From the IMG/VR virus record IMGVR_UViG_2713896785_000028, positions 1 to 45,586 of that record: a stretch of 45,586 nucleotides of DNA; one strand, given 5' to 3'. The translations under genes and the position numbers were made by a program. Positions 1,553 through 40,163 of the stretch are shown here, one piece after another (position 1 is the first letter of the stretch; each line of letters starts with the position of its first letter). The notes below the pieces were generated by a model. The model was not told the DNA's origin, searched no databases, and was given only the letters and a program-made list of their open reading frames with translations. The DNA comes from a virus (Duplodnaviria; Heunggongvirae; Uroviricota; Caudoviricetes).

Positions 1553-1753
1553 TCACGAGGACTGAAGTTTCTCGCAATTAAAATTTATCAGTTTTACTTT
1601 CTGCTCTCTGGAAACGCCTGCTTCTTTTTTCCCTGAGAGCATTTTTTCGCATTCCGATTTGGTTAACTTTGTTTTTGAGTACCTTGTCCAGTTAGTAGGA
1701 GTGCCACCTTCCTTTTCAATAGTGGCGGTAATTTTATACATGAACACCTCCAT
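1553..1753 (-). CDS. Hypothetical small protein (Rac YdaC position)
   Basis: ORF in track 1553..1813; shortened to the internal ATG (MEVFMYK...) to limit overlap with the upstream gene; start uncertain. Confidence 0.4.
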   Translation of the reverse strand: MEVFMYKITATIEKEGGTPTNWTRYSKTKLTKSECEKMLSGKKEAGVSREQKVKLINFNCEKLQSS

Positions 1754-10987: not shown

Positions 10988-11016
10988 TTACAATATATGA
11001 CTTGTCAAAGTATAAT
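10988..11016 (+). promoter_or_regulatory. Putative sigma70 promoter of the ATPase-protease cassette
   Basis: TTACAA, 17-bp spacer, perfect TATAAT, ending about 10 nt before the ATG at 11027. Confidence 0.4.
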
Positions 11017-11026
11017 GAGAGATTGC

Positions 11027-12130
11027 ATGAAGATTAACCATGAGGATTTAATTGATCTTATAAAGGCATCACTGGATGCGAATTACAGCGAAGTTCGTAG
11101 TGTTAGTAATCGCATTGTTCGCGCAATTAGCGCTCAGGATGCTGACTTAGCAAAGCAAATTAAGTCTATCATCCGTAAAAAAGGGGTACCATTACGTAGC
11201 TCTGGTTATACGGACAGTTTGCCCTTAGATCCGAAATCAAGGATGCCTTTAGTGGAAGAAGTCGAATGGCCTGCAACGCCTTTATTTCTTTCTGATGAAT
11301 CACAGCATATTTTTCATGCTTTTATTCAGAATGTTATCCATCAGAATGAACTTATAGAGAATGGAATTCCAGGTAAATTGAATTTACTTCTTTCTGGTCC
11401 GCCAGGAACAGGTAAGACATTAGTCGCTGGTCATATCGCATCCAAATTAAACAAACCGCTCTATGTTGTTCGGCTTGACTCTGTTATTTCTTCTCTGTTA
11501 GGTGATACAGCGAAGAACCTAAGACAGATTTTTGACTTCGTCCCGACAAAAGATGGTGTGTTATTTCTTGATGAAGTAGATGCGGTTGCTAAGCTTCGTG
11601 ATGACAATCAGGAAGTTGGAGAGTTAAAAAGAGTTGTTAACACATTAATCCAAGGACTGGATTCTCTTGATGATTCTGCTATTGTCATTGCTGCAACTAA
11701 TCATTCGAAGCTATTGGATCCAGCAATTTGGAGACGTTTCCCATATAAAATTAGCTTTGGTTTGCCTGGACAAGATGTCAGATGTGCTATGTGGGAACAT
11801 TTTTTATTTAGAGATGATACGGATTCATTTCTAAGTAAAATGTTATCTATCATATCAACTGGGCTAACAGGTGCTGATATTGAAAATATCAGTTTATCTG
11901 CAAGAAGGCATAGTGTTTTATCTGGCAATGGACTGGATATACCATCTGTTGTTTATGCTATATTGAATAGCGTTGCAGATAGTACAGCAATTCCTTTTGG
12001 TAAGGATATAAATTCGAGTGTTAAGAAAAATTTAGCGAAGGAATTATCTAAGTTTAAATTATCACAGGCAGATATCGGTAGACTTTTAAATGTGAGCAGG
12101 CAAACTATATCAGGTTATTTCAAGGAATAA
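11027..12130 (+). CDS. AAA+ ATPase (IetA-like candidate defence ATPase)
   Basis: 367 aa from the ATG downstream of the predicted promoter (track ORF starts at 10997); Walker A LLLSGPPGTGKT, Walker B VLFLDEVD, sensor-1 IAATNH, Arg-finger region DPAIWRRF; HTH-like C-terminus (LSQADIGRLLNVSRQTISGY); visibly AT-rich. Confidence 0.8.
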   Translation: MKINHEDLIDLIKASLDANYSEVRSVSNRIVRAISAQDADLAKQIKSIIRKKGVPLRSSGYTDSLPLDPKSRMPLVEEVEWPATPLFLSDESQHIFHAFIQNVIHQNELIENGIPGKLNLLLSGPPGTGKTLVAGHIASKLNKPLYVVRLDSVISSLLGDTAKNLRQIFDFVPTKDGVLFLDEVDAVAKLRDDNQEVGELKRVVNTLIQGLDSLDDSAIVIAATNHSKLLDPAIWRRFPYKISFGLPGQDVRCAMWEHFLFRDDTDSFLSKMLSIISTGLTGADIENISLSARRHSVLSGNGLDIPSVVYAILNSVADSTAIPFGKDINSSVKKNLAKELSKFKLSQADIGRLLNVSRQTISGYFKE

Positions 12131-12132
12131 TT

Positions 12133-14400
12133 ATGGTCAGTGAAAATAAAGCTAAAATTTTAAACCCAATAATTACTTTATTGAAACCACCAACGCCAGA
12201 GGCGATTCCTGTTGGAGGGAAAAGTCGTAAAAATATTGTTGGTTCACGGTTGAAACAACAGCGTGAAGTTTTATCCTCAGAGATAGATTCCATATTAAGA
12301 ACAGAAGGTGAAATAGTTAAACATCGTGGTAAGTATCATATAGTAACAAGTATGTTTGAGGACTCATATGCACCATCGTTTATACCAGATTCATTATTCT
12401 GTCCCAGTGTTGAATGTAAGATAGTTGCACCAGCATACAATGGATATTTAATTGAGGTCAATAGCAATGCTTTATTGAAGTTGAAAAATAAAATTAATAA
12501 TGCAAAAGCTATTACTGATCTTGTGGATATTTCAAGGGTTAGAAGTGTTAGTCTTTTTGATTCATCTTGTACATTGCGAAATAGTAGCCTTGATTCGCTC
12601 TGGAATACAGTTAAGGCTTTGAATACATTTCAATTTAATATGTGGCTTATGCCTTTTTTTGATGAGCTTTCTAGAGAGTCTGTAGTTTCAACTTTTTTAA
12701 ATTTTTTAAATGATGGTATCATCGCTTTTGGTTATTCAGATTTTGACATAAAAACTATAAATCAAGATGCTGCTGTTGGCGGGGATAATATAGTCATAGT
12801 TCCACCGTTACTTATTGAAGCGATAAAAAAGTATCGTAAATCAGGTCAAGCATCCGTTACCGTCACTGTAGAGACTAAAGATAGTTTAAACAGGATACTG
12901 AATAGCAGTGCTGTGTATCGTATAGATCCTGTATCACCGCTAAACGTAACAGATACTCCTCCTGGTAATGGGGCTGAACCTGTTCCACCAATATTGGGGG
13001 ATAAGAAAATGCCAACTGTAGTTGTAATTGATGGTGGGTGTAATGCGAAATCATATTCAAATTTAAATATATATAAACTAAATCCGCTAATTCCAGATCA
13101 TGATGCAGATTGTAAACATGGTAATAAAGTTGTATCGTTGTTATGTCACGGTTATGCTTGGAATAATAATTTAAACTTACCTAAATTGCAATGTAGCTAT
13201 ATAAGTGCACAGGCTATTGCGAAAAGGGGAGTGTTGAAACAACCAACTCCGGATCAATTTTTAAATTATTTAAGAATGGTTGCTGACAAAACGTCATCTA
13301 TCGCCAAGGTCTGGAATCTTTCGTTTAATGAAGACGCTCCTCATTATAACTGTAATGAGATAAGTTATCTGGGACATAAAATCAGTTTGTTGGCTCGAGA
13401 ATTTGGTATTCTGCCTGTAATATCTATCGGTAATGTTTCAAAGAACGAAAAACAAAAAAATCTTTGTCCGCCCGCAGATTGTGAGTCAGGAATTACAGTA
13501 AGTGGGAGAACGGCCAATCATGAAGGAATGCCTTCAGATGGCTGTCCTTTAAGTCGGAAAGGCCCTGCTCCTGCAGGAATGAAAAAACCTGAGTTATCAT
13601 GGTTTTCTCGAGTTAGGGTGATAGGTGGAACAGTAGATATCGGAACAAGTTTTAGTGCTCCATTAGTTTCATCTATTGCTGCTCATACCTTTTCGAATAT
13701 TAAAAATGCCACTCCTGATTTGGTTAGGGCATTATTGATTAACAGGAGTGAGTTGCTTTCTCATGATGATGCATTAGGATGGGGGACTCCTTGGGATGGC
13801 GATTTACTGCCATGGTATTGTAAAGATGGCAGTGTCACATTAACGTGGATATCTAAGTTAAAGGCTGGGGCTGCTTATTATTGGAACGATCTTCCATTAC
13901 CTCCAGAGATGTTAGTTAATGGTAAATTAGTTGGTGAGATATCTCTGACAGCTATACTAAAACCTAAGGTTTCTGAGTTCGGAAGTGAGAACTATTTTTC
14001 GACAAGGCTCCAATGTTCGTTACAGGCAATAAAAGAAATTAACGGAACGCTAAAAACAGAAAGCCTTCTTGGGTCAATGAAAGAATCTTCTGTTGATGAG
14101 CGTAAAGCTAGAAATGAACTTTCTAAATGGAGCCCTATTCGCCATCATGCAGAGTCGTTTAAGAGAAAAGATATAACAGGGTGTAAAATTCGGCTTTATG
14201 CTAGGATATATGCTAGAGATTTGTATCAGTATGGGTTAAATAACCAACGGGAGCTTGAAGAGCAAGAGGTTTCCTTTGTTTTAACTTTTAAAAGTGTATC
14301 AGGATCGTCCTCAATATATACATCAATGGTTCAGCAACTTGGTGTTTATGTTGAAAGTGCTGTTATAGATAATCACATTAACATAGATGTTAATAAGTGA
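12133..14400 (+). CDS. Subtilisin-like S8 serine peptidase (IetS-like)
   Basis: 755 aa, 2 nt after the ATPase stop; catalytic-triad motifs in S8 order: Asp (TVVVIDGG), His (HGNKVVS), Ser (GTSFSAPLVSS); about 280-aa N-terminal and 240-aa C-terminal regions of unknown function; AT-rich. Confidence 0.8.
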   Translation: MVSENKAKILNPIITLLKPPTPEAIPVGGKSRKNIVGSRLKQQREVLSSEIDSILRTEGEIVKHRGKYHIVTSMFEDSYAPSFIPDSLFCPSVECKIVAPAYNGYLIEVNSNALLKLKNKINNAKAITDLVDISRVRSVSLFDSSCTLRNSSLDSLWNTVKALNTFQFNMWLMPFFDELSRESVVSTFLNFLNDGIIAFGYSDFDIKTINQDAAVGGDNIVIVPPLLIEAIKKYRKSGQASVTVTVETKDSLNRILNSSAVYRIDPVSPLNVTDTPPGNGAEPVPPILGDKKMPTVVVIDGGCNAKSYSNLNIYKLNPLIPDHDADCKHGNKVVSLLCHGYAWNNNLNLPKLQCSYISAQAIAKRGVLKQPTPDQFLNYLRMVADKTSSIAKVWNLSFNEDAPHYNCNEISYLGHKISLLAREFGILPVISIGNVSKNEKQKNLCPPADCESGITVSGRTANHEGMPSDGCPLSRKGPAPAGMKKPELSWFSRVRVIGGTVDIGTSFSAPLVSSIAAHTFSNIKNATPDLVRALLINRSELLSHDDALGWGTPWDGDLLPWYCKDGSVTLTWISKLKAGAAYYWNDLPLPPEMLVNGKLVGEISLTAILKPKVSEFGSENYFSTRLQCSLQAIKEINGTLKTESLLGSMKESSVDERKARNELSKWSPIRHHAESFKRKDITGCKIRLYARIYARDLYQYGLNNQRELEEQEVSFVLTFKSVSGSSSIYTSMVQQLGVYVESAVIDNHINIDVNK

Positions 14401-15424: not shown

Positions 15425-15714
15425 TGGTGGATTTACGTAAAGCGGCGCGGGGGCAGATGTGCACCATCAGAATTCCTGGCTACTGCAATCACAATCCCGA
15501 AACTTCTGTGCTGGCGCATTACCGACTGGCGGGGACGTGCGGAACAGCGACAAAACCACACGATATGCAGGCAGCGATTGCCTGTAGATCGTGCCACGAT
15601 TTAATCGACGGGCGGGTAAAAACCAGTGATTACACCAAAGAAGAATTACGCCTGATGCATGCAGAAGGTGTTTTTCGCACACAAGAAATCTGGAGAAAGG
15701 AGGGATATTTATGA
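15424..15714 (+). CDS. ybcO: YbcO-like protein (DUF1364, putative Zn-dependent nuclease)
   Basis: 96 aa; Cys/His-rich (CTIRIPGYCNHNPETSVLAHYRLAGTCGT...CRSCHDLID), resembles recalled DLP12 YbcO. Confidence 0.6.
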   Translation: MVDLRKAARGQMCTIRIPGYCNHNPETSVLAHYRLAGTCGTATKPHDMQAAIACRSCHDLIDGRVKTSDYTKEELRLMHAEGVFRTQEIWRKEGYL

Positions 15715-16253
15715 TTTACCCAACGAATACAGGAAAAAGCGGAGAACACCTTCGTCTCACTACGCTGGAAAGTGTCTGGATTCAGGGAAAACTACGTATG
15801 TGGGGGCGCTGGTCATATATTGGTGGTGGCAGGTCAGGAAATATGTTCAATCAGTTGTTGGCATCCAAAAAATTGACGAAAACAGCCATCAATGAAGCCC
15901 TGCGCAGAATGAAAAAAGCGGGAATAGAGAAACCTGAGCTGGAAGCGTTTTTGCGAGAGATGATCAATGGTAAGCAAAAGAGCTGGCTGGCGCATTGTAC
16001 TGATGCAGAGGCGTTATGTATTGATCGGGTTATAAGTGAGGTGCTGGCAGAACATCCGGGATTGATTAGCATCCTCCGACAACGGTATGAGGGGCGAGGA
16101 ATGAGTAAGAGAAGGATGGCCGGGTTACTAAACGAACAGTATCCAGAGTGGTGTTTTAACACATGCGAAAAGCGAATTGCTAATTGGTTGGCTGTTGCTG
16201 AGTGTGCGCTATACATTCCCATGCGAGAATCATTTGCTCAAAAAATGGCTTGA
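15711..16253 (+). CDS. Q: Late-gene antiterminator Q (lambdoid Q-like)
   Basis: 180 aa; strong AAGGAGGG RBS; WG-W motif (KLRMWGRWSY) recalled from Q-family antiterminators; immediately upstream of a tR'-like terminator and the late region. Confidence 0.6.
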   Translation: MIYPTNTGKSGEHLRLTTLESVWIQGKLRMWGRWSYIGGGRSGNMFNQLLASKKLTKTAINEALRRMKKAGIEKPELEAFLREMINGKQKSWLAHCTDAEALCIDRVISEVLAEHPGLISILRQRYEGRGMSKRRMAGLLNEQYPEWCFNTCEKRIANWLAVAECALYIPMRESFAQKMA

Positions 16254-16334
16254 TTTCTTACGCATAAACTGCTTCAATTCCGATACGCTTCGCAAAGCTG
16301 TATCGCGTGGCGAATTAATCGCATGAACTTCACC

Positions 16335-16362
16335 AGAACCCGCCATTGAGCGGGTTTTGTTG
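16335..16362 (+). terminator. tR'-like terminator downstream of Q
   Basis: CCCGCCATTGAGCGGG hairpin followed by TTTTGTTGTT. Confidence 0.55.
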
Positions 16363-16706
16363 TTATGTTTAACCATCTACGGGAGAGCTGGCGCTCTACT
16401 GACTGGTATTTTGATAACGAAATCTTAAATATTTTATATTGTGATTGTTAGTTGTCTAAATTTTATGTATGTTAAGCGGCACAGGATTCCTCCTGCGACG
16501 AAGTTTTAGTGGAATCATTATTTACTTTTCTTATGCCAGCCTTTCCTTGAGGTTGGTTTTTTTATACCTGAAAAAGCAGGTTGGTACGTTAAACTTTATG
16601 ATGGCTATGCAATTTTAGTTTCTCCTTTCCTGAACCCTCTTGACTACATGGAATTTTCTTTGTTATGTAAAGCGAGTTAATGTTGTTAAGTTGTTAGAGG
16701 ATGATT

Positions 16707-17420
16707 ATGAGTGACAGTACTCTGCTCAGGAATTCTTCACTTTTTGTTGCTTACATGGGGTGTCTTGGGTGGGGAAGTGCTTATTTCTATGGCTGGGGTA
16801 CTTCCTTTTACTATGGCTTTCCATGGTGGGTTGTCGGGGCCGGTGTTGATGATGTGGCCAGAAGCCTGTTTTATGCTGTCACAGTTATCGTTATATTCTT
16901 GGCTGGATGGGGGATCGGTATTGTCTTCTTTCTGGGGATCAAACAAAAAAATAATATGAAGGATTTGAGTGCTGTCAGGCTTTTTCTTGCGATATTGTTG
17001 CTTTTTGTTCCTCCGGCTCTGGAGTTTTCGGTAATTCATCAGCACTTTGTGCCAGATGCATTGGTTTTATGCGCTATTGTGGCATTAATAATTACCATGT
17101 TCGTCAGAACGGGCAGGAAGTTTATTTACGTTAAATGTATTTCTGAAGTGTCTTTTATTCGGCATCACAAGATTGAGTGTGTTATGGCCGGATTCATGCT
17201 CTATTTCTGGTTGTTTTCGCTTATTGCTGGATGGTACAAACCTCAGTTTAAGAAGGAGTATCAGACACTTCACTATGAGAGCGTTTGGTATTACGTTCTT
17301 GCTCGCTATGGTGATCGCTTGGTTTTATCAAAATCGTACAGGCACGGTAGTACGAATTTCGTTATACTTAATAGCGCACATACAGATGAATTTGAAATTA
17401 ATATAGTCAAAGTGCGCTAA
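16707..17420 (+). CDS. Multi-pass membrane protein, moron of unknown function
   Basis: 237 aa from the ATG with an AGAGGA RBS; about five hydrophobic helices rich in Trp/Gly/Tyr plus a roughly 50-aa hydrophilic C-terminus; AT-rich gene with an AT-rich upstream region. Confidence 0.6.
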   Translation: MSDSTLLRNSSLFVAYMGCLGWGSAYFYGWGTSFYYGFPWWVVGAGVDDVARSLFYAVTVIVIFLAGWGIGIVFFLGIKQKNNMKDLSAVRLFLAILLLFVPPALEFSVIHQHFVPDALVLCAIVALIITMFVRTGRKFIYVKCISEVSFIRHHKIECVMAGFMLYFWLFSLIAGWYKPQFKKEYQTLHYESVWYYVLARYGDRLVLSKSYRHGSTNFVILNSAHTDEFEINIVKVR

Positions 17421-17560
17421 AACATTATGAGTAACCGGGATATAGACTTTTCTGCTTGTTGTTCAGATATTTTTACTTGATTGTAGCTGACATACAAGAT
17501 TTAAACGGTTGTGTTGGGTGGATTACAGCGCTAAACTGATTCAGTCAATATTTTTCAATC

Positions 17561-17636
17561 GGCCCTTTAGCTCAGTGGTGAGAGCGAGCGACTCATAATC
17601 GCCTGGTCGCTGGTTCAAATCCAGCAAGGGCCACCA
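17561..17636 (+). tRNA. tRNA with anticodon CAU (Ile2/lysidine type, ileX/ileZ-like)
   Basis: Cloverleaf read by hand: acceptor GGCCCTT/AAGGGCC, D-arm TAGCTCAGTGGTGAGAGC, anticodon loop CTCATAA, T-loop GGTTCAAATCC, encoded CCA; close to the recalled E. coli ileX sequence. Confidence 0.8.
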
Positions 17637-17638
17637 TT

Positions 17639-17715
17639 CCGCCACTAGCTCATCGGGATAGAGCATCAACCTTCTAAGTTGATTGTGCGAGGTTCGAGTC
17701 CTCGGTGGCGGACCA
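17639..17715 (+). tRNA. tRNA-Arg (anticodon UCU)
   Basis: Cloverleaf read by hand: acceptor CCGCCAC/GTGGCGG, anticodon stem TCAAC/GTTGA, loop CTTCTAA, T-arm CGAGGTTCGAGTCCTCG, discriminator A plus CCA. Confidence 0.8.
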
Positions 17716-18777
17716 TTCCATGCAAGTTTAGCTGGCAGCGCTATTAGCTCGGCGTAATAGGGCTATTCGTTAGGCTCTGTTAGTTCACCATATTTCGTCA
17801 AAACTTTTCTTTTCAACGCTACAGTTAACGTTAATCATTACAAAAACTACTGCTGATGTAAGTCTTGTGAACTGTTATTTCTGAAGAGCTTACTGTGATT
17901 TATTGCGACAACGGAGTTAGCGTACTCCCAATTTGTTCATTTTTATGTTGTTTTTTTTCACAATTTCCTGTGAGAAATCAGAAGTCTGGATGAAATAACG
18001 TAAATTGTATGCGTATGATACATATTTATACATATATTTAAATATGAAAACTAATTAGTTTTTGATGTCATATAAATTATCGGTAATATTACTCCCGACC
18101 CGAAAGGCAGCAAGTTTCTGTTCACAGGGGTGTTACCCGCTGTCTTGCGGGTCATTGCAGGCATCCGTTTAATCATAATGAAGGGCTGTTATCAGTATCA
18201 GTGTCATTATTGTGGTTACGGAGGCCTGCTCTATGTGCAGGTATCGTATAGTGGTTATTACATCAGCCTTAGGTTGGTAATGCCGGTTCGATTCCTGTTC
18301 TCCGCAACTTCATTGTTTTTTTGGACAAGTTTTTACAGCACTGGCGAATTTTCGTGAAGAACAGACCTGGCAGGTGGATTTGTTGTTCTTCATTCTGTAG
18401 ACCTGACCGCCTACAGTTTCAGTGCTTTTTTTGTAGTCATCCCTGCATGTTGCAGGGATGAGGTGATACCAGAATGCGTCGTTGTCTGTTTCCGGGCTTA
18501 CGATTTGCCAGTTTGCACAGCAGGCTGACGGCGCATTCTTATAACATCTATACAAGTAAACTCTGTTTCATCATTACATTGCGTTAGCCCGCCTTATGTG
18601 TGGGCATTTTTTTACCTATGCATATGGCTCGCTGCGGCGGGCCTTTTTCATATCCGCGCCACGCCTGGCGCACATCACATCAGATAGCGCCACACAAAAG
18701 GTATCTGCGGGTGCCTTTGACGGGGTGTTTTTTTACGGGCCGACAGAGGCCCTTTTTTATTTACAGGAGAAAAACGT

Positions 18778-19167
18778 ATGTCTGAACCCTTGTCCGGTTC
18801 CGGCACGGCTGCGGCGCTCGGCGGGGCGACGGTATTCGGGCTGTTTACCGGAACGGATTTCGGGATTGTGTTTGGTGCATTCGCAGGGGCGCTGTTTGTG
18901 GCCACGATACCACAGCAGATTTCTGTCTGGCGTGTGGCAGCGCATTTTCTGGTGTCGTTCATTGTTGGCGTGCTGGGGGCGGATGTGATGGCGTCTTACC
19001 TGGTTGAAAAACTGAATCTCCACAGCACATCTCTCGACGCGCTTTGCGCGGTACTGGTATCGGTGGTGTCGGTGAAGATTCTCTCATTCATCCACCAGCA
19101 GGATATCGCATCGCTGGTATCCGGGCTGTTCTCCCGTCTGCGGGGTGGAGGCGGCAATGTTAAATAA
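18778..19167 (+). CDS. Putative holin / lysis membrane protein
   Basis: 129 aa; Gly/Ala-rich transmembrane segments; GGAGAAAAAC RBS; first gene of the lysis cassette upstream of the endolysin. Confidence 0.5.
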   Translation: MSEPLSGSGTAAALGGATVFGLFTGTDFGIVFGAFAGALFVATIPQQISVWRVAAHFLVSFIVGVLGADVMASYLVEKLNLHSTSLDALCAVLVSVVSVKILSFIHQQDIASLVSGLFSRLRGGGGNVK

Positions 19168-19435
19168 CCTTCCCGGATTGCTGAATGTGGCGTCATGTAC
19201 GGTTATCGTGCTGACGCTCTTTTTTTATCGTCGTCGTGATTCCAGACATAAACCGCTGATGTCATGGCTGGCCTGGCTGCTGATGCTGCTGTATGCCTTT
19301 GCGCCCCTCAGCTATCTGTGTGGTCGCTTTCCACCCGGTAACTGGCTGGTCGTCCTGATTAACCTGGTGTTCTGCGTGCTGGTGATACGAGCACGCGGGA
19401 ACGTATCAAAAATCCTTGTATTACGAAGGCGCTGA
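19157..19435 (+). CDS. Putative holin (three TM segments, basic C-terminus)
   Basis: 92 aa from the ATG with a GGAGG RBS; three hydrophobic segments and a C-terminal RRR; ends 2 nt before the endolysin start. Confidence 0.5.
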   Translation: MLNNLPGLLNVASCTVIVLTLFFYRRRDSRHKPLMSWLAWLLMLLYAFAPLSYLCGRFPPGNWLVVLINLVFCVLVIRARGNVSKILVLRRR

Positions 19436-24953: not shown

Positions 24954-25731
24954 GGTTCTGACGGATGCCGTTAACTACTACGTAAATCACGGGTGGGATA
25001 GCGAAAAATCATTGCTCGAATGGTGCCGGAAACTCCGTGTAGCCGCTCAGCGAGAAACCCCTGATGATACCGTAGCCAGAAAACATCTCACCGCTATCTA
25101 CAGCCGTCTTGTCATCGACGGCGGGGCATTACGGGATCAGCCTCCTGACGGCCCTAAAAAAATCACTGTTGAAAAACTGAAACCTGAGTTTCGCAAGGAA
25201 CTCGACAGGCGAATTTTCGCCAGTGCCAACCTGATAAAACTCAACCGCGAACAGGCTATCGAGAAAACCATACAGCGTTTTCAGGGATGGGTTACGTCCA
25301 TTCCGCCTGACGGGGTGAGCGAAATTGATCGCCGGGAAGTGAAGTCCGGTTTTCAGAAGTCCGTGAAGGATATGGATTTTATCAGTCGCCGGGTGGCAAT
25401 TGACCAGGGACATAAGCTGGCGAGCAACGTTAAGTATCTGCTGGCTGTTCAGAGTGGTGCGATTGCTCTGCGCTGGCATTCTAACTGGCGGCGTCCGGGC
25501 TACAAATACCGACAGGACCACAAAGAGCGCGACGAGAAAATTTATCTCCTCCGCGATTCGTGGGCGCTGGAGCAGGGGCTGATTAAGCCCGTATATGGTT
25601 TTTATGACGAAATCACTGCTGCCGGGGAGGAGGTTTATTGCAGTTGCGATGCACTGCCGATCTACGCCCCTCAGAAACTACCCGACGAATTTTTAACGGA
25701 GAAGGGCAAACGTGAGTTTAACCGAGCTTGA
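24898..25731 (+). CDS. Head morphogenesis / minor head protein (putative)
   Basis: 277 aa from the ATG with an AGGAG RBS (track ORF from 24760 overlaps the portal in another frame); position after the portal. Confidence 0.4.
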   Translation: MAISSRAGRKKKRIRTLYEVLTDAVNYYVNHGWDSEKSLLEWCRKLRVAAQRETPDDTVARKHLTAIYSRLVIDGGALRDQPPDGPKKITVEKLKPEFRKELDRRIFASANLIKLNREQAIEKTIQRFQGWVTSIPPDGVSEIDRREVKSGFQKSVKDMDFISRRVAIDQGHKLASNVKYLLAVQSGAIALRWHSNWRRPGYKYRQDHKERDEKIYLLRDSWALEQGLIKPVYGFYDEITAAGEEVYCSCDALPIYAPQKLPDEFLTEKGKREFNRA

Positions 25732-27034
25732 AGTGGCAGAACGCATCAGGGACGGAACCGTACCGTCTCCGGTGAAATTCTCCAACATGTGGCTGGTGAA
25801 TTTGCGAATAACCGGAACCGGGCTTGCCTATCGCGCCGGGCTGAAAGAGCACGTCTGGCGTGATCCAAAGCTCTATCTGAACGAGGAGTTTTTAAGGCGA
25901 TGCAATGGCCTTCCGGTTATCGCAAACCATCCTGACGACGCAGTTCTGACGGAGGAGGATTTTAAATCGCGGATCGTCGGTAGCGTCATGCTGCCGTATA
26001 TCCGGGGTGATGAGGTATGGGCGGTGTGCCGCGTTTACCTCCAGAGCATTGTTGAAGAAATCACTGAGGGGGATGTTTCGACAAGCCCGTCGGTGGTGTT
26101 CAACAGCACATCAGGAAATGTGGAAGTACAGGAAGGTGACACCAATTTTTTAATCGAGGGCGTTCCTTTCCTTGTTGATCACATCGCCCTGGTGACGAAA
26201 GACCACGGCTCACTGGGCGTGTGGGATAAAGACCGGATCCCCGCAGGGGTTGAAGTGACAAACACAGGTGAAATCGAGATGGAAAAAGAAGAACTCCAGG
26301 CCCTGTTACAGGGGGTGGTGAACGATGCCCTGAGCGGCATTAATCAGAAAATCGATGGAGTAGTCACGCGCATGGACTCACTGGAACAGCGGGACAAAGC
26401 GCGGGCGGATGCTGAAGAGCAGGCGAAAAAAGAGGTCGAAGAAAAGGCCAAAGCCGATGAAGCCGCAGAGGAACAGCGTAAAGCTGATGAAGCTGCGGCA
26501 AAGGAGCCGGAAGAAAAAGCCAAAGCTGACGAGGCAGCAGCCAAAGACGCTGAGGAGAAAGCAAAGGCTGATTCCGAAGCAGAAGAACAGCGTAAGGCCG
26601 ACGAGGAGGCAGAAAAAGAACGCAATGATTCTGCCCTGGCAGAAGCGCAGGCAAAAGCCGACTCCGCATTCAGAGCCTGCGGTAAAAACGCGCCAGCACC
26701 GTTTTCTGGTGAAAATGCGCTGGACTACCGCAAGCGTGCGCTAATCGCTATGCAGAAACACTCTCCGGCACATAAGGACGTCAATATTCGCGCGATTGCG
26801 GATTCTGCAACGCTGGCTGTGCTTGAGGACGCAATTTTCAGTGCCGCCCGTCAGTCCATCGAAAAAGAAATGATGAGTACGCAGGGGCAACTGCATAAAC
26901 GTATCCGCAACGATGAAGCCGGACGTCGCATTACTGAATATCAGGGCGATCCGAACGTCTGGCTGAGTGCTTTCAAAATTCCGGGGCGTCGTCTGGCAAA
27001 AATTAACACTCAAGGGAGCCTGAACAATGGCTGA
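25712..27034 (+). CDS. Capsid scaffolding / maturation protein with Ala-Glu-Lys-rich coiled-coil repeats
   Basis: 440 aa; central tandem repeats (EEQRKADEAAAKEPEEKAKADEAAAKDAEEKAKAD...); position before the major capsid gene. Confidence 0.45.
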   Translation: MSLTELEVAERIRDGTVPSPVKFSNMWLVNLRITGTGLAYRAGLKEHVWRDPKLYLNEEFLRRCNGLPVIANHPDDAVLTEEDFKSRIVGSVMLPYIRGDEVWAVCRVYLQSIVEEITEGDVSTSPSVVFNSTSGNVEVQEGDTNFLIEGVPFLVDHIALVTKDHGSLGVWDKDRIPAGVEVTNTGEIEMEKEELQALLQGVVNDALSGINQKIDGVVTRMDSLEQRDKARADAEEQAKKEVEEKAKADEAAEEQRKADEAAAKEPEEKAKADEAAAKDAEEKAKADSEAEEQRKADEEAEKERNDSALAEAQAKADSAFRACGKNAPAPFSGENALDYRKRALIAMQKHSPAHKDVNIRAIADSATLAVLEDAIFSAARQSIEKEMMSTQGQLHKRIRNDEAGRRITEYQGDPNVWLSAFKIPGRRLAKINTQGSLNNG

Positions 27035-38853: not shown

Positions 38854-39002
38854 ATCACAGTTTTATGATAAAACTTTTACCTTGGTTTGGAGTGCTGTAG
38901 AGAGATATTTTAGGGGGGCGAGTAATTTTCTAAGCTGGAGCATATTGACATATATTATTTCGGATTTGCAAAATACATATTGTTACCATGGAGGAGACAA
39001 GC

Positions 39003-40163
39003 ATGGAAAATTTTGCAAATAAGTTAAAAATACACACAGAGCATGTTGCAAAAATGGGGGTGTTTTGTACAACTGAAGAAACGACAAAACAAGCACTCAT
39101 TATGCCATTACTAGATATTCTTGGTTTTACTCCGTATGATCCAAGAAAAGTCAAAGCTGAGTATAGTGCTGACTTCCCCGGGGTTAAGGCTAATGAACGG
39201 GTTGATTACGCTTTATTTTGTCATGATGTTCCTGTGATGTTCATTGAGGCGAAATCGTTTTCAGAACAAATTGATAATCACTGCCCACAGCTATCAAGAT
39301 ATTTTAATTCAACACCGGAAGTTACTATATCAGCCATTACAAATGGTGTTGAATGGCGTTTTTTTACGGATTTGAAACAAAAAAACATAATGGATTCAAC
39401 GCCGTTTTTAAAAATAAGAATGGATTCTCTAACTCACTCCGATATTACACAATTATTTCGTTTTCGTTATGATAAATTCAAACCAGAGGCTTTACGGACA
39501 CTGGCTGAAGAAAGTGTTTATTTGAATTCATTTACTAAAACAATCAGTTCTAGTCTTCGTGAAGTTGATCTGGAGTTTGTTCGATATGTTGCTAGTCGTT
39601 CAAATATTGAGAGACAACTTAATCAGAGATTTCTTGAGTTCGTGACTCCATTAGTTAAACAGGCCGTTGAGCGCGCTGTTAGCGCAATGGTGGTTTCCGG
39701 GCTATCTACACAACCGGTAGAGCAAACTAAAGAAAATGATGCAACGGATACACAAGTTAATAACGCCATTGTTGATGAAGAAAACCCCAACATAATAACC
39801 ACAGCCAAAGAATTGGAGCTATTTGAAAGGGTAAAACAAATCATACAAACAGAAGATAATATAGAATATAAAGATACTGAGTCATATTTTGGTGTGCTAT
39901 TGAATGGTAAAACTAATAGATGGCTGTTAAGATTTTATGATAAAAAATCTTCATTTATAACTTTACCTATTTCGCTTAGTGAAGTTCAGTTGAATGAAAT
40001 AAGACGAGCTCGACTTGATACGGATGGTAAAAGGATACATATAACTAATCCGGAAGATATACTTCGCATATCTGGTTTGATTCTGGATTCATACGAGTAT
40101 GTTAAAAATGATGATAATTTCCGCCGAGGGTCCAGAGTGAGCAGTTTAGAAGAGGTTGAATAA
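39003..40163 (+). CDS. Restriction-endonuclease-like PD-(D/E)xK nuclease with HsdR-N-type N-terminal domain, moron of unknown role
   Basis: 386 aa from the ATG with a GGAGGA RBS; N-terminal motifs ALIMPLLDILGF...RVDYALF...VMFIEAKS...ITNGVEWRFF match the type I restriction HsdR N-terminal nuclease pattern; AT-rich; own TTGACA promoter element upstream and a terminator downstream. Confidence 0.7.
   Translation: MENFANKLKIHTEHVAKMGVFCTTEETTKQALIMPLLDILGFTPYDPRKVKAEYSADFPGVKANERVDYALFCHDVPVMFIEAKSFSEQIDNHCPQLSRYFNSTPEVTISAITNGVEWRFFTDLKQKNIMDSTPFLKIRMDSLTHSDITQLFRFRYDKFKPEALRTLAEESVYLNSFTKTISSSLREVDLEFVRYVASRSNIERQLNQRFLEFVTPLVKQAVERAVSAMVVSGLSTQPVEQTKENDATDTQVNNAIVDEENPNIITTAKELELFERVKQIIQTEDNIEYKDTESYFGVLLNGKTNRWLLRFYDKKSSFITLPISLSEVQLNEIRRARLDTDGKRIHITNPEDILRISGLILDSYEYVKNDDNFRRGSRVSSLEEVE

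Follow-up and report, generated by a model that had tools for sequence, protein, structure and literature searches.

Which element fills the slot between the late antiterminator gene and the lysis genes of a prophage if this slot holds transfer RNAs (tRNAs) and RNA structures and no protein-coding gene? Here, we address this question for positions 17561 to 18777 of the IMG/VR virus record IMGVR_UViG_2713896785_000028, a Caudoviricetes sequence of 45,586 nt that was analyzed at its full length and is referred to as the window; all coordinates are those of the window. A first-pass annotation had described this locus as a reduced version of the ileZ-argN-argO tRNA cluster of Stx phages. The outline of this annotation, i.e. 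two live tRNAs, one dead tRNA, no genes, and RNA structure, stands; the identity that it gave to the remnant and the ileZ-argN-argO framing do not. Altogether, our analysis supports that the locus is probably a non-coding cargo slot in the late-operon leader of a P27-type/lambdoid Escherichia coli prophage, bounded by a Q-like antiterminator gene upstream and by a cassette of two holins and a GH108 endolysin downstream, and made up of three layers. Layer 1 would be a working two-tRNA unit, in which tRNA-Ile2(CAU) reads AUA and tRNA-Arg(UCU) reads AGA/AGG; layer 2 would be a dead copy of a self-contained tRNA expression cassette, the tRNA of which is now a pseudogene; and layer 3, in the final 200 nt before the holin ribosome-binding site, would add another two hairpins along with three to four intrinsic terminators.

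The third, degenerate tRNA-like element (18237-18306, plus strand) is a genuine tRNA relative. The Rfam tRNA model (RF00005; gathering score 29 bits) reports it at 31.8 bits, i.e. marginally above gathering, with four flagged non-pairs and a 5-nt anticodon loop. Specifically, the loop reads CUUAG (CUU--AG, a 2-nt deletion) instead of having 7 nt, and the acceptor stem is not fully paired, with mismatches at A3-C70 and U6-C67; a further mismatch, C51-U63, lies in the T-stem. ARAGORN calls the pseudogene in no lineage, the window included. E. coli R1 has an intact tRNA-Gly(UCC) at the equivalent position with homologous flanks on both sides, and in E. coli VG48B2 a degenerate copy of the element (98% identity) is followed 0.7 kb further on by an intact tRNA-Gly. 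This homology to intact prophage tRNAs with syntenic flanks rules out that the fragment is a chance match. In Rfam, intact Gly alleles score 51.6-65.6 bits and the Arg(UCU) allele 47.8 bits, while degenerate copies score 31.8 or 27.1 bits or are unreported. The degenerate copies fall into four lineages (the window/VG48B2/OkiPb01675 type, ETEC1730, EC416, and LR-21-1). All four share the acceptor mismatches A3-C70 and U6-C67, and each has private stem breaks and its own loop (CUU--AG in the window, CUUCUGG in ETEC1730, CUUUUAG in EC416, and CUUCUAG in LR-21-1). The shared acceptor mismatches together with the lineage-private breaks and loops indicate that the pseudogene of the common ancestor was defective already and has since decayed neutrally. 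Identities of the degenerate copies to the Gly(UCC) and Arg(UCU) alleles are 0.71-0.78, compared with 0.55-0.58 to argO, 0.52-0.56 to argN, 0.58-0.61 to the tRNA-Arg of the window, and 0.44-0.49 to its tRNA-Ile. For the remnant in the window, the values are 75-78% to the Gly(UCC) and Arg(UCU) alleles and 55-57% to argO or argN. By sequence comparison, the remnant is, thus, a pseudogene of a separate and rare prophage cassette that usually carries tRNA-Gly(UCC) and occasionally tRNA-Arg(UCU).

The two halves of the pseudogene differ in their affinities. For the 5' half, identity is 0.82-0.85 to the Gly(UCC) allele and 0.71-0.76 to the Arg(UCU) allele, which is known from strain C41 and two IMG/VR contigs; for the 3' half, the Arg(UCU) allele is closer (0.79-0.85) than the Gly allele (0.61-0.67). 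The acceptor strands GCAGGUA and UCUCCGC follow this division, being Gly-like on the 5' side and Arg-like on the 3' side, and they fail to pair because each resembles a different allele. In our reading, a Gly and an Arg allele recombined to give the pseudogene, unless it represents a failed intermediate between them. A recombinant tRNA of this kind could never have folded properly, and the lineage of the window would later have lost 2 nt of the anticodon loop; the ancestral loop likely read UCU before this loss of two bases. As to the Arg(UCU) allele itself (E. coli C41, L025:1689-1764; L026 and L047), we notice that its D-arm, T-loop, and U73 are as in tRNA-Gly(UCC), with 75-81% identity, and that, by our reading of the D-loop, it is devoid of the usual arginine identity base A20; it looks like an anticodon-shifted tRNA-Gly.

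The pseudogene is embedded in conserved flanks. In alignments of the upstream region, first of 11 loci (A4) and subsequently of 34 unique sequences drawn from E. coli genomes as well as IMG/VR, invariant columns define an AT-rich element (18006-18045) in which a TGATACAnATnTATACA motif is preceded by TGTAT-N7-ATACA. This element is a candidate UP element or regulator site; by inspection, spacing/position led us to dismiss both a P2-type activator dyad (TGT-N12-ACA at -55) and a LexA box as its identity. A putative sigma-70 promoter on the plus strand (18062-18089) follows, with a -35 TTGATG (18062-18067), a 16-nt spacer, and a -10 TAATAT (18084-18089). Both hexamers are conserved, the -10 being TAATAT or TAGTAT, while the spacer sequence varies between lineages. 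The window matches the family motif TGATACAnATnYATACA with -35 TTGATR and -10 TARTAT at 18016-18089, and this phylogenetic footprint suggests that these elements form the promoter of the cassette.

Between promoter and tRNA lies a leader of 116-149 nt, depending on the lineage. Based on RNAalifold, pair counts, and the minimum free energy (MFE) fold, the leader of the window forms two hairpins on the plus strand: H1 (18097-18153), with an outer stem GACCCG/CGGGTC, an inner stem GGCAGC/GCUGUC, and a conserved apical UGUUCACAGGGGUGUUA; and H2 (18157-18229; GCAGGCAUCCG/CGGAGGCCUGC), the loop of which exceeds that of intact-tRNA lineages by ~33 nt. In the 16-sequence leader alignment, RNAalifold finds 18 pairs, nine with compensatory double changes, of which seven are in H1. 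Leader cells are paired in 95.5% compared with 25-47% if the partners are slid by one to three columns, and none of 500 shuffles reached the covariation score. Thus, the regulatory RNA structure that the first-pass annotation had suggested for this stretch gains support. A covariance model of the leader has one match in the window (130 bits, 18095-18243), the window sequence being part of the model, and it finds independent copies in nine metagenome contigs (103-134 bits), where a tRNA-Gly or the pseudogene follows. Consistently, the MFE fold of 18091-18436 alone gives H1, H2, and a branched trailer (z = -4.15). In E. coli 720632 (L004:3159-3243), the leader model also matches a tRNA-Lys directly before tRNA-Gly within an array of four tRNAs (26 bits, E about 1e-4), and the 3' side of H2 (GUGAUUCCGGAAGCCAG) resembles the T-arm and acceptor end of this tRNA-Lys; the leader may descend from a decayed upstream tRNA.

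Downstream of the pseudogene, a trailer (18337-18432, plus strand) is found by alignment (A6), RNAalifold, and the MFE fold. Its closing stem, AGCACUG (18337-18343)/CAGUGCU (18420-18426), encloses two to three slightly covarying inner hairpins and is followed by U7, and we suggest that it functions as a branched intrinsic terminator. Promoter motif, leader hairpins, and trailer are all intact here although the tRNA is dead. In one other lineage (L029, L040, and L046), promoter, leader, and trailer are kept and a plain hairpin replaces the tRNA.

The cassette is rare. Of 5426 complete E. coli genomes, 51 contain it, the pseudogene form accounting for 16 of these, and it also occurs in 34 IMG/VR loci; a metagenome scan returned 51 loci, of which nine are true cassette copies that add no lineage. 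Among the unique cassette sequences, 16 carry Gly and two carry Arg. Scanning a one-genome-per-species collection with the pseudogene pattern and with the promoter motif returned nothing, and the cassette is not traceable outside E. coli in that collection; a distant DNA search of a phage collection returned only tRNA-Gly homology, and the interval was found in no isolated phage of that collection. Separately, we notice that ~100 nt spanning the pseudogene end and the trailer start (18292-18397; L018:3001-3101) have a 74% match in an unannotated intergenic stretch of 21 Escherichia plasmids, 18 of which are predicted to be conjugative; the one inspected, from Escherichia fergusonii, is an IncF plasmid.

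A 40-nt identity scan locates a mosaic joint at 18340-18360: left of ~18350, the window is 97-100% identical to the VG48B2/L012 type, and from ~18360 on, it is 97-100% identical to the R1 type. The cassette would, thus, have recombined with an R1-type cassette after its tRNA had died. Because the joint falls within the conserved trailer motif CAGCACUGGCG, it suggests that short conserved RNA motifs may serve as crossover points for cassette exchange. In VG48B2 (L002:3317-5138), the pseudogene cassette is followed in tandem by a cassette with an intact tRNA-Gly, and the same twin-terminator module is present after either one; this arrangement shows that the whole unit duplicates or inserts as a block.

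Upstream of the cassette, the two tRNAs are intact. On the whole window, ARAGORN calls exactly two tRNA genes, both on the plus strand: the ileZ-type tRNA-Ile2 with anticodon CAU (17561-17636; Rfam 71.6 bits) and a tRNA-Arg with anticodon UCU on an argN backbone (17639-17715; Rfam 57.8 bits). Both encode CCA, and the 2-nt spacer (17637-17638) is as initially described. All stems of tRNA-Arg pair in the Rfam alignment; in tRNA-Ile2, a single non-pair is flagged, A27-C43 of the anticodon stem, and it is also present in ileZ of Stx2a_F349 and phiP27. tRNA-Ile2 differs from ileZ of Stx2a_F349 at one of 76 nt, and in near-identical E. coli loci the NCBI annotation names the CAT tRNA as tRNA-Ile. 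In tRNA-Ile2(CAU), C34 is converted to lysidine by TilS, after which AUA is decoded; presumably, this also applies to C34 of the prophage tRNA. tRNA-Arg(UCU) aligns over its full length with argN of Stx2a_F349, with paired changes in the anticodon stem, and adjoins tRNA-Ile2 as argN adjoins ileZ (spacer 1-2 nt); however, its anticodon is UCU and not UCG. The body of argO is quite different from it. By sequence and position, the intact Arg tRNA, thus, corresponds to argN rather than to argO. With its argN-like body, its UCU anticodon, and its lack of resemblance to the argO body, the locus appears to be ileZ plus an argN-type tRNA with the specificity of argO, rather than a reduced three-tRNA cluster. 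Similarly, the AGA/AGG decoding that the first-pass annotation had ascribed to the cluster does not extend to argN, because argN(UCG) of the Stx2a phage serves neither codon according to ARAGORN and only argO(UCU) does. In E. coli ETEC1730 (L005:2580-2653), the tRNA-Arg(UCU) beside ileZ scores only 32.3 bits in Rfam compared with 55.6-59.4 elsewhere and may be degenerating in that prophage.

Codon usage fits the idea that the pair supplements the host tRNAs. Per 1000 codons, E. coli has on average roughly 4 ATA, 2 AGA, 1 AGG, and 8 GGA. In the open reading frames (ORFs) of the window, these numbers are 11.1, 6.5, 4.8, and 16.0, and ATA reaches 38 in a subtilase gene with 36% GC. The codons served by the pair are, thus, two- to four-fold more common than is usual in E. 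coli and peak in AT-rich accessory genes, from which a benefit of supplementation can be suggested. This subtilase gene belongs to two adjoining AT-rich ORFs at 10997-14400 (plus strand; 36-37% GC; 377 and 755 aa), and both a Peptidase_S8 domain and 29 ATA codons are found in the larger one; these ORFs resemble a foreign accessory or defence-type insertion and are the heaviest users of the codons read by the phage tRNAs. A 36%-GC ORF among the tail genes (38988-40163, plus strand; 391 aa) has 14 ATA and nine AGA codons; as a second AT-rich insertion, it would depend on the phage tRNAs.

The tRNA pair has a conserved 3' trailer (17716-17790, plus strand), which in sliding identity profile and alignment is 90-100% identical across three lineages that are otherwise ~80% identical. 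A weak 5-bp hairpin (17913-17928) followed by a T-rich tract (17913-17958, plus strand) was detected in the terminator scan and is a candidate terminator of the pair; in the alignment, the hairpin survives a G-C to A-T change in EC416.

Between the cassette and the holin gene, the plus strand contains a series of hairpins. A perfect 10-bp hairpin without U-run (18438-18460; CAUCCCUGCA ugu UGCAGGGAUG) was identified by sequence, fold scan, and alignment and is shared only with the R1 type; its fold-scan z-scores go down to -6.3 (minus strand) and -4.1 (plus strand). A long imperfect hairpin (18471-18539; AGAAUGCGUCG.../...CGGCGCAUUCU), found by repeat search, fold scan (z = -3.8), and alignments, is retained through a GCG/CGC to GAG/CUC change in ETEC1730. 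Three sites have the GC-rich hairpin and U-run of predicted intrinsic terminators. T1 (18587-18612, hairpin 18587-18605) consists of GCCCGCC...GGGC and T7, and other lineages have a hairpin of different sequence and the same form at this site; T2 (18626-18648, hairpin 18626-18643; GGCUCGCUGCGGCGGGCC and U5) is conserved in five of six aligned loci, the exception being EC416; and T5 (18737-18758, hairpin 18737-18752) consists of GGGCC gacaga GGCCC and U6, with a nearly invariant stem (one G-C to G-U change in ETEC1730) and a loop that varies across lineages. T5 is the GC hairpin with a T-run that the first-pass annotation had placed just before the first lysis gene. A further terminator-like hairpin, seen by sequence (18697-18734; AAAGGUA...UGCCUUU, then GGGGUG and U7), is part of the holin leader and conserved in six of six aligned loci and in phiP27. 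In total, the terminator scan of 15500-19200 returned nine sites compared with 3.7 +/- 2.0 in shuffled sequences, and the twin terminators are present twice in VG48B2. A 24-bit Rfam match to suhB/mmgR merely reflects two adjacent terminators. T5 ends 6 nt (18759-18764) before the Shine-Dalgarno sequence AGGAG (18765-18769) of the first lysis gene (18765-19167, plus strand; ATG at 18778; from the ORF list), a holin (Pfam Phage_holin_8, E=5e-22); all compared loci share a conserved stretch of 125 bp up to the holin start, of which ~95 bp (from 18684) are also conserved in phiP27. We suggest that the terminators would stop transcription coming from the tRNA and cassette promoters, and that the lysis genes would then be expressed only when the Q-like protein makes RNA polymerase resistant to termination. 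By analogy to lambdoid late operons, the terminator stack most likely insulates the lysis genes until the RNA polymerase is modified in this way.

Several observations weigh against parts of this description. The cassette promoter matches the consensus in only 8 of 12 hexamer positions and is below the threshold of the promoter scan, which left it unflagged. The covariation of the leader is mostly between intact-tRNA and pseudogene lineages and, therefore, does not prove selection after the death of the tRNA. As an intrinsic terminator, the branched trailer would be unusually shaped, and covariation is neutral on its closing stem, which is invariant. Rather than being a hybrid, the pseudogene could mark a stage in the evolution between the Gly and Arg alleles. 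Finally, the DUF1133 protein, i.e. the product of the Q-like gene, is linked to read-through of these terminators by analogy only.

Other explanations of the locus can be weighed against the three-layered slot. The first-pass annotation took the element at 18237-18306 for a decayed argO left over from an ileZ-argN-argO cluster. It occupies the same position between antiterminator and lysis genes as the cluster of the Stx phages, and the ancestral loop of the pseudogene reads UCU as in argO (CUUCUGG in ETEC1730 and CUUCUAG in LR-21-1); nevertheless, an identity to argO of 0.55-0.58 is at the level of unrelated tRNAs compared with 0.72-0.78 to the cassette alleles, the element of the window itself being 0.55 identical to argO and 0.49-0.61 to the other unrelated tRNAs. 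Moreover, the fragment is 522 nt from tRNA-Arg, while argO lies only 13 nt after argN in Stx2a_F349, and the fragment comes with a promoter, leader, and trailer of its own, all conserved and in common with tRNA-Gly cassettes. Searching Rfam at E<=10, we found no further tRNA-like match and, thus, no argO homologue or remnant. Accordingly, a decayed argO is refuted on sequence grounds and is highly improbable. Even less credible is a functional, unorthodox tRNA. The anticodon arm can be redrawn with a 4-bp stem and a loop CCUUAGG, visible in the sequence, giving an ochre-reading anticodon UUA, and the fragment exceeds the Rfam gathering threshold; however, two acceptor-stem mismatches and one T-stem mismatch remain, position 33 of the redrawn loop is C and not U, ARAGORN does not call it, the NCBI pipeline leaves copies with 98-100% identity unannotated, and the other loops and additional stem breaks of the sister lineages follow the pattern of neutral decay. 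As for a hidden gene, the ~1 kb without genes that had been noted before the lysis genes is confirmed: in the 1062 bp of the interval (17716-18777; GC down to 0.33-0.35 at 17750-18200), no ORF exceeds 81 aa, none has a match in Pfam or among the PHROGs, stops or frameshifts interrupt all except one of them in homologous loci, and none of the 19 complete E. coli genomes holding the interval has a feature annotated there. Hidden genes were, therefore, rejected based on Pfam, PHROGs, and tblastn conservation. A 41-aa ORF on the minus strand (18051-18176) stays open in three diverged lineages and could suggest a real small protein gene; however, its amino acid identity (75-78%) is below the nucleotide identity of these lineages (mostly 75-97% in 40-nt windows), so that the substitutions are nearly all non-synonymous, the opposite of coding constraint. 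This ORF also overlaps the cassette promoter and H1, where RNA covariation accounts for its conservation, and it is not present in Gly-type cassettes. From the low amino acid identity and the overlap with a conserved promoter and hairpin, we conclude that the ORF is not under coding constraint as judged from these alignments, and a protein gene concealed in the interval is very unlikely.

A more substantial alternative is that the cassette still works as a non-coding RNA gene, with the tRNA as dispensable cargo. Leader, trailer, or both would then be small regulatory RNAs (sRNAs), or would act in cis on transcription into the lysis genes, for instance as a processive antiterminator or a processing signal. 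In the pseudogene lineages, the promoter and leader start (18040-18099) are 85-97% identical compared with 78-90% for the pseudogene; no lineage has lost the pairing of H1 and H2, with G-U, A-U, or G-C at inner-stem position 2 of the three pseudogene lineages; the lineage without any tRNA (L029, L040, and L046) retains promoter, leader, and trailer; and the z-score of 18091-18436 is low. H1 begins at the presumed transcription start, as does putL of HK022 (PMC9378689), and the equivalent slot elsewhere is home to the sRNAs Pas, AgvB, AsxR, and STnc100 (bioRxiv 10.64898/2026.05.13.724894). On the other hand, no Rfam family matches leader or trailer, there is no similarity to the PasA, PasC, and PasD loci or to the HK022 immunity region, and the conserved terminator within the cassette speaks against an antiterminator role. 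Because the independent pseudogene lineages number only about three, chance or recent shared ancestry could account for the excess conservation, and the same lysis cassette occurs without the element in thousands of prophages (3481 records vs. 51 genomes). We, therefore, consider a working RNA gene unlikely. It is similarly doubtful, even if conceivable, that promoter, leader, and branched trailer make up an undescribed family of prophage non-coding RNAs, acting as an sRNA in trans or as a cis tuner of P27-type lysis transcription; the argument for selection independent of the tRNA is that the cassette survives with a dead tRNA here and without a tRNA in another lineage. The slot with a working tRNA pair, a dead cassette, and a terminator stack is the reading that we favor.

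How does this slot compare with known systems? The ileZ-argN-argO cluster of Stx phages (Stx2a_F349, 933W type; ileZ-argO in phiP27) has the same position after the late antiterminator and before cargo and lysis genes. The prophage resembles it in its ileZ homologue, which is 1 nt off, in the argN body of its Arg tRNA, and in the presumed supply of rare codons; it differs in having two tRNAs only, UCU for UCG, no argO homologue, no toxin gene, and a third element from another tRNA lineage. A literature search for ileZ, argN, and argO together gave no result. As the first-pass annotation had proposed, the slot is the site of tRNAs and toxin genes in Stx phages: phiP27 has ileZ, argO, and stx2e directly before the same holin leader. 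In ETEC and WAT prophages, the same slot holds TerB/DUF3927 genes, and in strain 720632, four tRNAs. The Gly(UCC)/Arg(UCU) cassette before P27-type lysis genes (e.g. E. coli R1, C5, RM10740, WAT, and C41) is annotated in databases as a lone tRNA only. With these cassettes, the window shares the AT-rich motif, the -35/-10 hexamers, H1/H2, the trailer stem plus U-run, and the location ahead of twin terminators and holin leader; unlike them, it has a dead tRNA, the ~33 nt longer H2 loop, and a trailer recombined from an R1-type copy.

PasA/PasC/PasD, AgvB, AsxR, and STnc100 are sRNAs encoded in the slot between antiterminator and holin genes (bioRxiv 10.64898/2026.05.13.724894; PMC8550237; PMC4104026). 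As would apply to the putative RNA element of the window, they are non-coding RNA genes with terminator hairpins in an accessory slot of E. coli prophages; however, they accompany the lambda-type holin/lysozyme cassette and not the P27 type. BLAST of the window against the pas loci of E2348/69 gave only noise at E>1, and an Rfam scan at E<=10 found no AgvB, AsxR, STnc100, or Esr41 and only noise beyond the three tRNA matches. The Pas sRNAs, considered as holin neighbors, were, therefore, dismissed for lack of similarity, and PasA is on the opposite strand. The put RNAs of HK022 are two stem-loops directly downstream of a promoter that act in cis as processive antiterminators, with put sites located downstream of PL and PR (PMC9378689). 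In this class, the resistance of RNA polymerase to terminators is conferred through the beta-prime zinc-binding domain. Both they and the cassette leader are promoter-proximal stem-loop pairs upstream of terminators; however, put is ~70 nt long and belongs to early operons, while the leader has 116-149 nt, lies in the late region, and is part of a unit with a conserved terminator inside. An identity with put was rejected, because the covariance model of the leader has no match at E<=10 in HK022 25000-30100.

Among the neighboring features, the Q-like late antiterminator gene (15711-16253, plus strand) encodes a DUF1133 protein (Pfam E=3e-106) with a weak, yet above-threshold, match to Phage_antitermQ (28.7 bits). 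It is followed by a strong terminator-like 10-bp hairpin (16334-16359, plus strand; terminator scan). Just 3' of the gene (16250-16360, plus strand), a possible promoter recognized by eye (TTGATT-17-TTCAAT) precedes this hairpin, a layout as expected of a short late-promoter RNA such as lambda 6S or StxS, and without an Rfam match. Further downstream (16411-16557, plus strand), a promoter-like site (TTGATA-18-TATATT, 10 of 12 matches) is followed ~100 nt on by a 9-bp terminator hairpin; both precede an AT-rich ORF for a membrane protein (16701-17420; phrog_1521) and could be a small transcript or an attenuated leader. An Rfam scan of 16150-17570 found nothing. In the early region, the sRNA RalA, which is the antitoxin to RalR, is matched at full length (1557-1735, plus strand; 218.5 bits), so that a Rac-type type I toxin-antitoxin pair is implied for this prophage.

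In conclusion, the annotation of this locus is corrected in that the third element is a pseudogene of a Gly/Arg cassette and not argO, and in that the intact Arg tRNA has the body of argN with a changed anticodon. The architecture is mostly known from prophages, and the tRNA pair is, aside from this anticodon, an ordinary member of the tRNA sets of Stx phages and P27-type prophages. Modestly new are the leader and trailer, RNA structures not previously described, which are rare, covariation-supported flanks of a prophage tRNA that have outlived their cargo; any function of their own is putative. In this prophage, the slot that in P27-type and Stx phages holds the toxin gene is filled by RNA modules only; recombination at short conserved RNA motifs seems to be the means by which these modules are exchanged. 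If the flanks are not functional, the locus is decaying cargo behind a terminator stack. Either way, it provides a natural case in which a tRNA is dead while its promoter and structured flanks persist; and if these flanks were functional RNAs, they would represent a new family among the growing number of prophage sRNAs beside lysis genes.

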